Sequence record: PV223880.1
Reading direction: 5' to 3' (one strand)
Length of the DNA stretch: 36,016 bases
Source of the DNA: Escherichia phage T7
Shown here: piece after piece, positions 8,104-20,241 of the stretch
Numbering within the stretch: position 1 is the first letter of the stretch
Layout: each line of letters begins with the position of its first letter
The notes under the pieces: model-generated
Told to the model about the DNA's origin: nothing
What the model saw: only the letters and a program-made list of their open reading frames with translations
The model's database searches: none
Translations under genes and position numbers: made by a program

Positions 8104-8533
8104 AGGAATCCGAAAGGTTGGAGCGTTTCGCTCTGGCCTAGAGGACAAGGTTTCAAAGCAGTTGGAATCAAAAGGTATTAAATTCGAGTATGAAGAGTGG
8201 AAAGTGCCTTATGTAATTCCGGCGAGCAATCACACTTACACTCCAGACTTCTTACTTCCAAACGGTATATTCGTTGAGACAAAGGGTCTGTGGGAAAGCG
8301 ATGATAGAAAGAAGCACTTATTAATTAGGGAGCAGCACCCCGAGCTAGACATCCGTATTGTCTTCTCAAGCTCACGTACTAAGTTATACAAAGGTTCTCC
8401 AACGTCTTATGGAGAGTTCTGCGAAAAGCATGGTATTAAGTTCGCTGATAAACTGATACCTGCTGAGTGGATAAAGGAACCCAAGAAGGAGGTCCCCTTT
8501 GATAGATTAAAAAGGAAAGGAGGAAAGAAATAA
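8084..8533 (+). CDS. 3: Endonuclease I, Holliday junction resolvase (gene 3), 149 aa
   Basis: MAGYGAKGIRKVGAFRSGLEDKVSKQLESKGIKFEYEEWKVPYVIP... Confidence 0.95.
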   Translation: MAGYGAKGIRKVGAFRSGLEDKVSKQLESKGIKFEYEEWKVPYVIPASNHTYTPDFLLPNGIFVETKGLWESDDRKKHLLIREQHPELDIRIVFSSSRTKLYKGSPTSYGEFCEKHGIKFADKLIPAEWIKEPKKEVPFDRLKRKGGKK

Positions 8534-8988
8534 TGGCTCGTGTACAGTTTAAACAACGTGAATCTACTGACGCAATCTTTGTTCACTGCTCGGCTACCAA
8601 GCCAAGTCAGAATGTTGGTGTCCGTGAGATTCGCCAGTGGCACAAAGAGCAGGGTTGGCTCGATGTGGGATACCACTTTATCATCAAGCGAGACGGTACT
8701 GTGGAGGCAGGACGAGATGAGATGGCTGTAGGCTCTCACGCTAAGGGTTACAACCACAACTCTATCGGCGTCTGCCTTGTTGGTGGTATCGACGATAAAG
8801 GTAAGTTCGACGCTAACTTTACGCCAGCCCAAATGCAATCCCTTCGCTCACTGCTTGTCACACTGCTGGCTAAGTACGAAGGCGCTGTGCTTCGCGCCCA
8901 TCATGAGGTGGCGCCGAAGGCTTGCCCTTCGTTCGACCTTAAGCGTTGGTGGGAGAAGAACGAACTGGTCACTTCTGACCGTGGATAA
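8533..8988 (+). CDS. 3.5: Lysozyme / N-acetylmuramoyl-L-alanine amidase, T7 RNAP inhibitor (gene 3.5), 151 aa
   Basis: MARVQFKQRESTDAIFVHCSATKPSQNVGVREIRQWHKEQGWLDVGYHFIIKRDG... Confidence 0.97.
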   Translation: MARVQFKQRESTDAIFVHCSATKPSQNVGVREIRQWHKEQGWLDVGYHFIIKRDGTVEAGRDEMAVGSHAKGYNHNSIGVCLVGGIDDKGKFDANFTPAQMQSLRSLLVTLLAKYEGAVLRAHHEVAPKACPSFDLKRWWEKNELVTSDRG

Positions 8989-9051: not shown

Positions 9052-10829
<1,778 letters not shown>

Positions 10830-10869: not shown

Positions 10870-12984
10870 ATGATCGTTTCTGACATCGAAGCTAACGCCC
10901 TCTTAGAGAGCGTCACTAAGTTCCACTGCGGGGTTATCTACGACTACTCCACCGCTGAGTACGTAAGCTACCGTCCGAGTGACTTCGGTGCGTATCTGGA
11001 TGCGCTGGAAGCCGAGGTTGCACGAGGCGGTCTTATTGTGTTCCACAACGGTCACAAGTATGACGTTCCTGCATTGACCAAACTGGCAAAGTTGCAATTG
11101 AACCGAGAGTTCCACCTTCCTCGTGAGAACTGTATTGACACCCTTGTGTTGTCACGTTTGATTCATTCCAACCTCAAGGACACCGATATGGGTCTTCTGC
11201 GTTCCGGCAAGTTGCCCGGAAAACGCTTTGGGTCTCACGCTTTGGAGGCGTGGGGTTATCGCTTAGGCGAGATGAAGGGTGAATACAAAGACGACTTTAA
11301 GCGTATGCTTGAAGAGCAGGGTGAAGAATACGTTGACGGAATGGAGTGGTGGAACTTCAACGAAGAGATGATGGACTATAACGTTCAGGACGTTGTGGTA
11401 ACTAAAGCTCTCCTTGAGAAGCTACTCTCTGACAAACATTACTTCCCTCCTGAGATTAACTTTACGGACGTAGGATACACTACGTTCTGGTCAGAATCCC
11501 TTGAGGCCGTTGACATTGAACATCGTGCTGCATGGCTGCTCGCTAAACAAGAGCGCAACGGGTTCCCGTTTGACACAAAAGCAATCGAAGAGTTGTACGT
11601 AGAGTTAGCTGCTCGCCGCTCTGAGTTGCTCCGTAAATTGACCGAAACGTTCGGCTCGTGGTATCAGCCTAAAGGTGGCACTGAGATGTTCTGCCATCCG
11701 CGAACAGGTAAGCCACTACCTAAATACCCTCGCATTAAGACACCTAAAGTTGGTGGTATCTTTAAGAAGCCTAAGAACAAGGCACAGCGAGAAGGCCGTG
11801 AGCCTTGCGAACTTGATACCCGCGAGTACGTTGCTGGTGCTCCTTACACCCCAGTTGAACATGTTGTGTTTAACCCTTCGTCTCGTGACCACATTCAGAA
11901 GAAACTCCAAGAGGCTGGGTGGGTCCCGACCAAGTACACCGATAAGGGTGCTCCTGTGGTGGACGATGAGGTACTCGAAGGAGTACGTGTAGATGACCCT
12001 GAGAAGCAAGCCGCTATCGACCTCATTAAAGAGTACTTGATGATTCAGAAGCGAATCGGACAGTCTGCTGAGGGAGACAAAGCATGGCTTCGTTATGTTG
12101 CTGAGGATGGTAAGATTCATGGTTCTGTTAACCCTAATGGAGCAGTTACGGGTCGTGCGACCCATGCGTTCCCAAACCTTGCGCAAATTCCGGGTGTACG
12201 TTCTCCTTATGGAGAGCAGTGTCGCGCTGCTTTTGGCGCTGAGCACCATTTGGATGGGATAACTGGTAAGCCTTGGGTTCAGGCTGGCATCGACGCATCC
12301 GGTCTTGAGCTACGCTGCTTGGCTCACTTCATGGCTCGCTTTGATAACGGCGAGTACGCTCACGAGATTCTTAACGGCGACATCCACACTAAGAACCAGA
12401 TAGCTGCTGAACTACCTACCCGAGATAACGCTAAGACGTTCATCTATGGGTTCCTCTATGGTGCTGGTGATGAGAAGATTGGACAGATTGTTGGTGCTGG
12501 TAAAGAGCGCGGTAAGGAACTCAAGAAGAAATTCCTTGAGAACACCCCCGCGATTGCAGCACTCCGCGAGTCTATCCAACAGACACTTGTCGAGTCCTCT
12601 CAATGGGTAGCTGGTGAGCAACAAGTCAAGTGGAAACGCCGCTGGATTAAAGGTCTGGATGGTCGTAAGGTACACGTTCGTAGTCCTCACGCTGCCTTGA
12701 ATACCCTACTGCAATCTGCTGGTGCTCTCATCTGCAAACTGTGGATTATCAAGACCGAAGAGATGCTCGTAGAGAAAGGCTTGAAGCATGGCTGGGATGG
12801 GGACTTTGCGTACATGGCATGGGTACATGATGAAATCCAAGTAGGCTGCCGTACCGAAGAGATTGCTCAGGTGGTCATTGAGACCGCACAAGAAGCGATG
12901 CGCTGGGTTGGAGACCACTGGAACTTCCGGTGTCTTCTGGATACCGAAGGTAAGATGGGTCCTAATTGGGCGATTTGCCACTGA
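10870..12984 (+). CDS. 5: DNA polymerase (gene 5), 704 aa, family A with 3'-5' exonuclease
   Basis: [27 protein letters not shown]... full-length 704-aa ORF. Confidence 0.98.
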
Positions 12985-13029
12985 TACAGGAGGCTACTCA
13001 AAAGGCATAAAACTATAGGAGAAATTATT

Positions 13030-13329
13030 ATGGCTATGACAAAGAAATTTAAAGTGTCCTTCGACGTTACCGCAAAGATGTCGTCTGACGTTCAGGCAAT
13101 CTTAGAGAAAGATATGCTGCATCTATGTAAGCAGGTCGGCTCAGGTGCGATTGTCCCCAATGGTAAACAGAAGGAAATGATTGTCCAGTTCCTGACACAC
13201 GGTATGGAAGGATTGATGACATTCGTAGTACGTACATCATTTCGTGAGGCCATTAAGGACATGCACGAAGAGTATGCAGATAAGGACTCTTTCAAACAAT
13301 CTCCTGCAACAGTACGGGAGGTGTTCTGA
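13030..13329 (+). CDS. 5.5: gene 5.5 protein (99 aa), H-NS binding
   Basis: MAMTKKFKVSFDVTAKMSSDVQAILEKDMLHLCKQVG... Confidence 0.9.
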   Translation: MAMTKKFKVSFDVTAKMSSDVQAILEKDMLHLCKQVGSGAIVPNGKQKEMIVQFLTHGMEGLMTFVVRTSFREAIKDMHEEYADKDSFKQSPATVREVF

Positions 13330-13538
13330 TGTCTGACTACCTGAAAGTGCTGCAAGCAATCAAAAGTTGCCCTAAGACTTTCCAGTCCAACTATGTACGG
13401 AACAATGCGAGCCTCGTAGCGGAGGCCGCTTCCCGTGGTCACATCTCGTGCCTGACTACTAGTGGACGTAACGGTGGCGCTTGGGAAATCACTGCTTCCG
13501 GTACTCGCTTTCTGAAACGAATGGGAGGATGTGTCTAA
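13329..13538 (+). CDS. 5.7: gene 5.7 protein (69 aa)
   Basis: MSDYLKVLQAIKSCPKTFQSNYVRNNASLVAEAASRGHISCLTT... Confidence 0.9.
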   Translation: MSDYLKVLQAIKSCPKTFQSNYVRNNASLVAEAASRGHISCLTTSGRNGGAWEITASGTRFLKRMGGCV

Positions 13539-13696
13539 TGTCTCGTGACCTTGTGACTATTCCACGCGATGTGTGGAACGATATACAGGGCTACATCGAC
13601 TCTCTGGAACGTGAGAACGATAGCCTTAAGAATCAACTAATGGAAGCTGACGAATACGTAGCGGAACTAGAGGAGAAACTTAATGGCACTTCTTGA
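13538..13696 (+). CDS. 5.9: gene 5.9 protein (52 aa), RecBCD inhibitor
   Basis: MSRDLVTIPRDVWNDIQGYIDSLERENDSLKNQLMEADEYVAELEEKLNGTS. Confidence 0.85.
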   Translation: MSRDLVTIPRDVWNDIQGYIDSLERENDSLKNQLMEADEYVAELEEKLNGTS

Positions 13697-14585
13697 CCTT
13701 AAACAATTCTATGAGTTACGTGAAGGCTGCGACGACAAGGGTATCCTTGTGATGGACGGCGACTGGCTGGTCTTCCAAGCTATGAGTGCTGCTGAGTTTG
13801 ATGCCTCTTGGGAGGAAGAGATTTGGCACCGATGCTGTGACCACGCTAAGGCCCGTCAGATTCTTGAGGATTCCATTAAGTCCTACGAGACCCGTAAGAA
13901 GGCTTGGGCAGGTGCTCCAATTGTCCTTGCGTTCACCGATAGTGTTAACTGGCGTAAAGAACTGGTTGACCCGAACTATAAGGCTAACCGTAAGGCCGTG
14001 AAGAAACCTGTAGGGTACTTTGAGTTCCTTGATGCTCTCTTTGAGCGCGAAGAGTTCTATTGCATCCGTGAGCCTATGCTTGAGGGTGATGACGTTATGG
14101 GAGTTATTGCTTCCAATCCGTCTGCCTTCGGTGCTCGTAAGGCTGTAATCATCTCTTGCGATAAGGACTTTAAGACCATCCCTAACTGTGACTTCCTGTG
14201 GTGTACCACTGGTAACATCCTGACTCAGACCGAAGAGTCCGCTGACTGGTGGCACCTCTTCCAGACCATCAAGGGTGACATCACTGATGGTTACTCAGGG
14301 ATTGCTGGATGGGGTGATACCGCCGAGGACTTCTTGAATAACCCGTTCATAACCGAGCCTAAAACGTCTGTGCTTAAGTCCGGTAAGAACAAAGGCCAAG
14401 AGGTTACTAAATGGGTTAAACGCGACCCTGAGCCTCATGAGACGCTTTGGGACTGCATTAAGTCCATTGGCGCGAAGGCTGGTATGACCGAAGAGGATAT
14501 TATCAAGCAGGGCCAAATGGCTCGAATCCTACGGTTCAACGAGTACAACTTTATTGACAAGGAGATTTACCTGTGGAGACCGTAG
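13683..14585 (+). CDS. 6: 5'-3' exonuclease (gene 6), 300 aa
   Basis: MALLDLKQFYELREGCDDKGILVMDGDWLVFQAMSAAEFD... Confidence 0.97.
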   Translation: MALLDLKQFYELREGCDDKGILVMDGDWLVFQAMSAAEFDASWEEEIWHRCCDHAKARQILEDSIKSYETRKKAWAGAPIVLAFTDSVNWRKELVDPNYKANRKAVKKPVGYFEFLDALFEREEFYCIREPMLEGDDVMGVIASNPSAFGARKAVIISCDKDFKTIPNCDFLWCTTGNILTQTEESADWWHLFQTIKGDITDGYSGIAGWGDTAEDFLNNPFITEPKTSVLKSGKNKGQEVTKWVKRDPEPHETLWDCIKSIGAKAGMTEEDIIKQGQMARILRFNEYNFIDKEIYLWRP

Positions 14586-16026: not shown

Positions 16027-16326
16027 GTGGAAGACTGCATTGAATGGACCGGAGGTGTCAACTCTAAGGGTTATGGTCGTAAGTGGGTTAATGGTAAACT
16101 TGTGACTCCACATAGGCACATCTATGAGGAGACATATGGTCCAGTTCCAACAGGAATTGTGGTGATGCATATCTGCGATAACCCTAGGTGCTATAACATA
16201 AAGCACCTTACGCTTGGAACTCCAAAGGATAATTCCGAGGACATGGTTACCAAAGGTAGACAGGCTAAAGGAGAGGAACTAAGCAAGTACTACAGCGTAA
16301 GACATGGAGACACATTTAATGGCTGA
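16027..16326 (+). pseudogene. 7.7: Gene 7.7 (HNH endonuclease-like) with internal frameshifting deletion; 99 codons instead of about 130
   Basis: GTG start; EDCIEWTGGVNSKGYGRKWVNGKLVTPHRHIYEE...HICDNPRCYNIKHL...GEELSK then out-of-frame tail YYSVRHGDTFNG*, ending 7 nt past the gene 8 ATG. Confidence 0.75.
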
Positions 16327-17929
16327 GAAACGAACAGGACTTGCGGAGGATGGCGCAAAGTCTGTCTATGAGCGTTTAAAGAACGACCGTGCTCCCTATG
16401 AGACACGCGCTCAGAATTGCGCTCAATATACCATCCCATCATTGTTCCCTAAGGACTCCGATAACGCCTCTACAGATTATCAAACTCCGTGGCAAGCCGT
16501 GGGCGCTCGTGGTCTGAACAATCTAGCCTCTAAGCTCATGCTGGCTCTATTCCCTATGCAGACTTGGATGCGACTTACTATATCTGAATATGAAGCAAAG
16601 CAGTTACTGAGCGACCCCGATGGACTCGCTAAGGTCGATGAGGGCCTCTCGATGGTAGAGCGTATCATCATGAACTACATTGAGTCTAACAGTTACCGCG
16701 TGACTCTCTTTGAGGCTCTCAAACAGTTAGTCGTAGCTGGTAACGTCCTGCTGTACCTACCGGAACCGGAAGGGTCAAACTATAATCCCATGAAGCTGTA
16801 CCGATTGTCTTCTTATGTGGTCCAACGAGACGCATTCGGCAACGTTCTGCAAATGGTGACTCGTGACCAGATAGCTTTTGGTGCTCTCCCTGAGGACATC
16901 CGTAAGGCTGTAGAAGGTCAAGGTGGTGAGAAGAAAGCTGATGAGACAATCGACGTGTACACTCACATCTATCTGGATGAGGACTCAGGTGAATACCTCC
17001 GATACGAAGAGGTCGAGGGTATGGAAGTCCAAGGCTCCGATGGGACTTATCCTAAAGAGGCTTGCCCATACATCCCGATTCGGATGGTCAGACTAGATGG
17101 TGAATCCTACGGTCGTTCGTACATTGAGGAATACTTAGGTGACTTACGGTCCCTTGAAAATCTCCAAGAGGCTATCGTCAAGATGTCCATGATTAGCTCT
17201 AAGGTTATCGGCTTAGTGAATCCTGCTGGTATCACCCAGCCACGCCGACTGACCAAAGCTCAGACTGGTGACTTCGTTACTGGTCGTCCAGAAGACATCT
17301 CGTTCCTCCAACTGGAGAAGCAAGCAGACTTTACTGTAGCTAAAGCCGTAAGTGACGCTATCGAGGCTCGCCTTTCGTTTGCCTTTATGTTGAACTCTGC
17401 GGTTCAGCGTACAGGTGAACGTGTGACCGCCGAAGAGATTCGGTATGTAGCTTCTGAACTTGAAGATACTTTAGGTGGTGTCTACTCTATCCTTTCTCAA
17501 GAATTACAATTGCCTCTGGTACGAGTGCTCTTGAAGCAACTACAAGCCACGCAACAGATTCCTGAGTTACCTAAGGAAGCCGTAGAGCCAACCATTAGTA
17601 CAGGTCTGGAAGCAATTGGTCGAGGACAAGACCTTGATAAGCTGGAGCGGTGTGTCACTGCGTGGGCTGCACTGGCACCTATGCGGGACGACCCTGATAT
17701 TAACCTTGCGATGATTAAGTTACGTATTGCCAACGCTATCGGTATTGACACTTCTGGTATTCTACTCACCGAAGAACAGAAGCAACAGAAGATGGCCCAA
17801 CAGTCTATGCAAATGGGTATGGATAATGGTGCTGCTGCGCTGGCTCAAGGTATGGCTGCACAAGCTACAGCTTCACCTGAGGCTATGGCTGCTGCCGCTG
17901 ATTCCGTAGGTTTACAGCCGGGAATTTAA
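16319..17929 (+). CDS. 8: Portal (head-tail connector) protein (gene 8), 536 aa
   Basis: MAEKRTGLAEDGAKSVYERLKNDRAPYETRAQ... to ...SVGLQPGI. Confidence 0.98.
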   Translation: MAEKRTGLAEDGAKSVYERLKNDRAPYETRAQNCAQYTIPSLFPKDSDNASTDYQTPWQAVGARGLNNLASKLMLALFPMQTWMRLTISEYEAKQLLSDPDGLAKVDEGLSMVERIIMNYIESNSYRVTLFEALKQLVVAGNVLLYLPEPEGSNYNPMKLYRLSSYVVQRDAFGNVLQMVTRDQIAFGALPEDIRKAVEGQGGEKKADETIDVYTHIYLDEDSGEYLRYEEVEGMEVQGSDGTYPKEACPYIPIRMVRLDGESYGRSYIEEYLGDLRSLENLQEAIVKMSMISSKVIGLVNPAGITQPRRLTKAQTGDFVTGRPEDISFLQLEKQADFTVAKAVSDAIEARLSFAFMLNSAVQRTGERVTAEEIRYVASELEDTLGGVYSILSQELQLPLVRVLLKQLQATQQIPELPKEAVEPTISTGLEAIGRGQDLDKLERCVTAWAALAPMRDDPDINLAMIKLRIANAIGIDTSGILLTEEQKQQKMAQQSMQMGMDNGAAALAQGMAAQATASPEAMAAAADSVGLQPGI

Positions 17930-20083: not shown

Positions 20084-20241
20084 TGCTGGGGGTGGCCTCA
20101 ACGGTCGCTGCTAGTCCCGAAGAGGCGAGTGTTACTTCAACAGAAGAAACCTTAACGCCAGCACAGAAGGCCGCACGCACCCGCGCTGCTAACAAAGCCC
20201 GAAAGGAAGCTGAGTTGACTGCTGCCACCGCTGAGCAATAA
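19046..20241 (+). CDS. 10B: Minor capsid protein 10B, made by -1 ribosomal frameshift near the 3' end of 10A
   Basis: Slippery ggttttc at 20065-20071; -1 frame continues ...QSGVMLGVASTVAASPEEASVTSTEETLTPAQKAARTRAANKARKEAELTAATAEQ* to stop at 20239-20241. Confidence 0.85.

Follow-up and report, generated by a model that had tools for sequence, protein, structure and literature searches.

The 45-bp spacer between genes 5 and 5.5 of a genome-reduced T7 phage is almost certainly the scar of a designed gene 5.3 deletion

Introduction

In the DNA analysed here, a stretch of 36,016 nucleotides that we call the window, only 45 bp separate the T7 DNA polymerase gene (gene 5) from gene 5.5, and gene 5.3, which lies between them in wild-type T7, is missing. 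A preliminary description of this locus, made from the sequence without database searches, had reported the deletion of an "HNH-like" gene 5.3 on the strength of an offset of about 338 bp. The question is whether such a spacer records a natural absence of the gene, a deletion arising on passage, an error of assembly or a deliberate edit, and what kind of protein was lost with it. We compared the window with wild-type T7 (NC_001604) both by script alignment and by a base-level analysis of the junction, two approaches that agree, and then with a collection of 50,697 phage records and with the published tables of an engineered T7. The spacer is almost certainly the scar left when gene 5.3 was deleted seamlessly, and by design, in the laboratory, and the window is, with the same near-certainty, the T7-B chassis of Zhang et al. 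2025 (mBio 16:e03582-24, PMC12153263). All window features described below lie on the + strand.

Results

The spacer retains both edges of gene 5.3

Gene 5 is intact at positions 10870 to 12984 (704 aa, TGA stop at 12982-12984), and so is gene 5.5, encoding the H-NS-interacting protein, at 13030 to 13329 (99 aa, ATG at 13030); the list of open reading frames (ORFs) and the matching GenBank annotation support both. Between them, positions 12985 to 13029 read tacaggaggctactcaaaaggcataaaactataggagaaattatt, 45 bp exactly as first quoted. The Shine-Dalgarno sequence AGGAGG, which in wild type stands 6 nt upstream of the gene 5.3 ATG (T7 16483), is still present at 12988-12993, and ATG, GTG and TTG are all absent from 12985-13029, so that none follows it. 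The observation that a ribosome-binding site had been left behind with no start codon thus holds. The window's ORF list contains no ORF of the length of 5.3, and just one entry runs into the spacer, a mechanical ORF (12863-13018) whose TTG start lies within gene 5 in another frame.

To the left of the junction, the gene 5 stop, the ribosome-binding site of 5.3 and the A of its ATG are all retained. The junction itself lies at 13000/13001, where 13000 is that A (T7 16483) and 13001 corresponds to T7 16822. To the right, the 29 nt upstream of gene 5.5 consist of the final 18 nt of gene 5.3 (13001-13018; codons ...KGIKL and the TAG stop at 13016-13018), identified by comparison of the junction with NC_001604, and of the native 11-nt spacer. 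This 18-nt remnant was kept because it overlaps the ribosome-binding site of gene 5.5, whose AGGAG (13017-13021), 8 nt before the ATG, stands in its native context and is identical to T7 16838-16842. We infer that translation of gene 5.5 is essentially normal in T7-B and that the orphaned site of 5.3, which lies 36 nt before the 5.5 ATG, has no function; it could nevertheless slightly change gene 5.5 translation. We know of no RNase III site in the T7 16468-16850 region. The annotation of NC_001604 over the same interval (16468-16850) contains no T7 promoter and no terminator.

Exactly 338 bp are missing relative to wild-type T7

Alignment to NC_001604 is colinear up to window 13000 (T7 16483) and continues from window 13001 at T7 16822, with no mismatch at either side. 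The missing segment, T7 16484-16821, amounts to exactly 338 bp of the 357-nt gene 5.3 (16483-16839), in agreement with the size first estimated from the offset, and the reference alignment across the spacer upholds the deletion. The junction is blunt, with 0 bp of microhomology: the outermost deleted bases, T at T7 16484 and C at T7 16821, each differ from the neighbouring base that was retained. Moreover, a megablast search with positions 12400-13600 against the phage collection matched T7 at 100% identity in two pieces. Since the window is otherwise nearly identical to NC_001604, with 19 substitutions in 36 kb, the deletion is a deterministic difference to which chance is irrelevant.

These 19 point differences lie at window positions 4830, 7781, 11458, 15859, 18854, 20167, 20218, 20317, 20425, 23114, 23862, 23969-70, 25337, 27870, 31054, 31333, 31337 and 33488. 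Seventeen are in coding sequence and all but one of these change an amino acid, the exception being 27870 in gp16; the changes include gp5 D197N, gp14 Q55S and, in the tail fibre protein gp17, T118A, K211E and R212Q. They probably originated as laboratory stock variation or through host adaptation.

The junction coincides with a published recombineering oligonucleotide

Zhang et al. divided the T7 genome into ten BAC-cloned segments, omitted segment F2 (gp0.4-0.7) and removed gp5.3 seamlessly from segment F7 by Red-ccdB recombineering, in which an amp-ccdB cassette was first inserted at gene 5.3 and, in a second round, exchanged for an 80-nt single-stranded oligonucleotide consisting of a pair of 40-nt homology arms; reassembly of the segments and rebooting of the phage followed (PMC12153263). 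Their Table S2 gives the gp5.3 deletion as 16,484-16,821 (338 bp) and the other six deleted regions exactly as mapped here, and the deletions were confirmed by PCR and whole-genome sequencing (PMC12153263). The list of nonessential regions was itself drawn from the CiPGr study of Yuan et al. 2022 (PMC12153263).

The footprint of the gp5.3 oligonucleotide (HA-gp5.3, Table S7) in the window is 12961-13040, with the two 40-nt arms meeting at 13000/13001, and the 80-mer expected there is CCTAATTGGGCGATTTGCCACTGATACAGGAGGCTACTCA followed directly by AAAGGCATAAAACTATAGGAGAAATTATTATGGCTATGAC. The machine-read text of Table S7, which gives 78 letters where the paper states 80 nt, aligns with this interval from end to end, the sole differences being two single letters missing in homopolymer runs (TTT and AAAA). 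With both gaps lying in such runs, extraction from the PDF is our explanation for the shorter text. The HA-gp4.3 and HA-gp7.7 80-mers match the window exactly. The two HA-gp19.5 arms lie about 250 bp apart, and gp19.5 is thus intact, as expected for T7-B and not for T7-A. In the machine-read entry for HA-gp1.4, the 40-nt left arm is printed twice instead of a left and a right arm (PMC12153263); this is probably an error of the table, since the sequence to the right of the 1.4 junction is as expected in the window.

Mechanistically, the synthetic oligonucleotide templated the removal of T7 16484-16821 by Red recombineering on segment F7, and the absence of microhomology is the expected outcome of an oligo-templated edit. 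The aim of removing gene 5.3 was to free packaging capacity for payload genes. The odd left boundary of the deletion, at the start of the gene +1, recurs for gp1.4 (7609-7764 against a gene at 7608-7763) and is probably accounted for by the CiPGr design, which probably also explains the 100-bp size of the 7.7 deletion.

The window corresponds to the complete T7-B genome

A 146-bp query across the junction gave a single contiguous match only in PV223881-3 among the phage collection, at the same coordinates as in the window (12935-13080), and all wild-type T7 records matched it in two pieces. The three records, with BL21(DE3) as host, are titled 'Mutant Escherichia phage T7 clone recombinant T7-B-G / -GJ / -J'. 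Compared with PV223883 (T7-B-J), the window is 100% identical on both sides of an 828-bp insert that PV223883 carries after window position 20084 and that encodes a Streptococcus phage lysin. Given this match minus the insert, together with 160-bp terminal repeats at both ends, the window (1-36016) is the complete, payload-free genome of the engineered T7-B lineage.

T7-B is listed in Table S1 as PV223880 and is described as a phage of 36.0 kb, reduced by 9.8%, that retains gp19.5 and forms wild-type-like plaques (PMC12153263). Its burst size is 197 +/- 9 vs 224 +/- 9 for the wild type, a modest drop ascribed to the deletions collectively, and T7-B is viable (PMC12153263). The tie between the window and PV223880 is made through the sibling records and the tables of that paper.

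Seven designed deletions and their side effects

Relative to NC_001604, seven deletions total 3921 bp, the difference between 39937 and 36016. Besides 5.3 (T7 16484-16821), they remove 0.4-0.7 (T7 1257-2737), 1.4 (T7 7609-7764), 1.7 (T7 8198-8733), 3.8 (T7 11268-11558) and 4.3-4.7 (T7 13279-14297) and affect 7.7 (T7 20109-20208). The six further deletions all stand at the Table S2 coordinates, in a 36,016-bp genome with intact gp19.5. When the blocks were realigned with the published coordinates, no mismatch was found around any of the seven junctions. Imperfect repeats occur near junctions 1, 5 and 7 of the set.

Several deletions also touch neighbouring sequences. The 0.4-0.7 deletion begins within gene 0.3 (ocr, T7 925-1278), so that the ocr ORF (window 925-1320), crossed by the junction near 1256/1257, lacks its final few codons after ...EEVEE and continues for 20 codons from the 0.7 region; PV223883 has no CDS annotated at this fused ORF. 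In wild-type T7, a 13-bp direct repeat, AGGAAGTCGAGGA, stands at both edges of the 1257-2737 interval. The gp1.4 deletion (7609-7764, gene coordinates +1) strips positions -17 to -14 from promoter phi1.5, whose +1 is T7 7778, and changes TAATACGACTCACTAAAGGAG into TTTAACGACTCACTAAAGGAG (window ~6124-6131). At gene 3.8, the sequence GAGGAGGCAATTGC from inside the gene now precedes the ATG of gene 4A (primase/helicase), replacing the native TAGGAGGGAATTGC (window 9085-9103), and gene 4A thus has a hybrid ribosome-binding site. Gene 7.7 has lost only 100 bp: its residual ORF (window 16027-16326) retains a complete HNH_3 domain (residues 29-70), lacks the C-terminal helix-turn-helix region and ends in a frameshifted tail that overlaps the start of gene 8. 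The sibling records leave this ORF unannotated.

Other origins of the junction are improbable

A deletion that arose spontaneously or was selected by CRISPR during serial passage, as in the CiPGr lines, instead of by oligo recombineering, has some points in its favour. The nonessential regions of the chassis come from the CiPGr study, short direct repeats edge some other junctions of the window, and mutants disrupted in gp5.3 rose to dominance on serial transfer (Yuan et al. 2022, NAR). However, the 5.3 junction is devoid of microhomology, the window matches a record of the T7-B family base for base, and, of the CiPGr genomes in the phage collection, OL964748 retains 5.3 and OL964749/50 are about 100 bp shorter than wild type across the gene. 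In the CiPGr study, moreover, the homology templates were made to design, with "cassette-gene" templates to remove a gene entirely and "cassette-100" templates to disrupt one over 100 bp (Yuan et al. 2022, NAR), so that even such a deletion would be an engineered one. We consider this origin very unlikely.

Natural absence would mean that the window came from a wild relative of T7 that, like many T7-like phages, had lost or never acquired 5.3 as a mobile nuclease gene. The gene is indeed patchy among relatives: by tblastn, gp5.3 homologues were found in just 100 phage records, over half of which are T7 itself, and the flanking gene 5/5.5 DNA occurs in 729 records of the collection. Yet the flanking sequences match T7 at 100% identity, the junction has the sequence of a published synthetic oligonucleotide and is common only to records labelled as recombinant clones, and six other designed deletions are present at published coordinates, which together make a natural origin extremely improbable. 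The chance that gene 5.3 is present in the phage and was merely collapsed out of the assembly is negligible, as we found no evidence for it, no repeats flank the junction to cause a collapse, three independently deposited sibling genomes have the same junction, and PCR and whole-genome sequencing confirmed the deletion in PMC12153263.

The deleted gp5.3 belongs to a PD-(D/E)XK family

In a Pfam scan, gp5.3 matched PF11645, a PD-(D/E)XK endonuclease family, over residues 5-96 (E 1.1e-10; 42.1 bits vs a cut-off of 26.1), and no HNH family matched it at E<=1; the same scan found HNH_3 in gp3.8 (E 3e-15) and gp7.7 (E 2.6e-13). The label "HNH-like" thus has to be replaced. The closest solved structure, PDB 2OST ('putative endonuclease'), is a weak match over residues 5-97 (E 0.013), and in this weak alignment 'DLV ... 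VQVK' of gp5.3 falls on 'DLV ... VQVK' of 2OST, a candidate D...QVK nuclease motif. We take 2OST to be the intron-encoded homing endonuclease I-Ssp6803I. The PHROGs entry for the gp5.3 family reads unknown function.

The deleted gp5.3 is a small, dispensable, nuclease-like protein of predicted PD-(D/E)XK type and not an HNH protein. Its patchy distribution fits a putative free-standing mobile nuclease gene. The literature searched holds no report of nuclease or homing activity for gp5.3: a bioRxiv paper on phage homing endonucleases and GAPS4 treats T7 gp3.8 only and not 5.3, and the main text of the PhageMaP preprint on T7 essentiality makes no mention of 5.3. Another T7 engineering paper (PMC12664982) mentions neither T7-B nor gp5.3.

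Discussion

Overall, the deletion of gene 5.3 in the preliminary description stood, the protein family it named did not, and the man-made origin of the locus had gone unrecognised. The loss of gene 5.3 is already known: it is a published engineering scar, real but ordinary. Its value here is mainly as a filter, in that neither natural gene loss nor homing-endonuclease turnover should be read from the scar. A second gain is the correction of annotation, which places T7 gp5.3 in the PD-(D/E)XK nuclease family and leaves gp3.8 and gp7.7 as the HNH proteins of T7. Users of the chassis may also care about its unannotated side effects, namely the clipped ocr, the trimmed phi1.5 promoter and the residual HNH-bearing 7.7 ORF.

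One may speculate, with low confidence, that gp5.3 is an active free-standing homing nuclease of PD-(D/E)XK type directed at the polymerase region in those T7 relatives that have no 5.3. If so, T7-B, in which 5.3 and 3.8 are deleted and 7.7 is truncated, would be deprived of an advantage in marker exclusion or in competition during mixed infection; alternatively, it would lose an interaction with host defences that sense DNA breaks, as recently reported for T7 gp3.8. Neither this reading nor an effect on gene 5.5 translation changes the identity of the spacer.

Comparison with known systems

For the deleted protein the nearest known system is the PF11645 family with 2OST: gp5.3 scores above the Pfam gathering threshold, and its weak alignment to 2OST takes in the candidate D...QVK motif. 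Like a gene of this kind, gp5.3 is small, free-standing, patchily distributed and adjacent to the DNA polymerase gene. The CiPGr T7 mutants (OL964748-50) are like the window in that gp5.3 was treated as dispensable and removed for genome shrinkage. They differ from it in the allele: OL964748 has kept gene 5.3, and in OL964749/50 the junction query spans 384 bp vs 484 bp in wild type, about 100 bp having gone from within gene 5.3. The 338-bp junction is not present in OL964748-50, and the ~100 bp missing from OL964749.1 and OL964750.1 fits a 'cassette-100' disruption, so that theirs is a delta-5.3 allele distinct from that of the window.

With wild-type T7 (NC_001604), the window shares gene 5 (bar one substitution, D197N), the ribosome-binding site of 5.3, the last 18 nt of 5.3 and gene 5.5, and it differs in lacking 16484-16821, which is 338 of the 357 nt of gene 5.3. 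Its closest counterparts are T7-B and the derivatives T7-B-G, T7-B-GJ and T7-B-J (PV223881-3), which have the same seven deletions at the same coordinates and the same 5.3 junction. T7-B itself agrees further in its 36.0-kb length and intact gp19.5, and no difference between it and the window was detected by way of the sibling records and the published tables.
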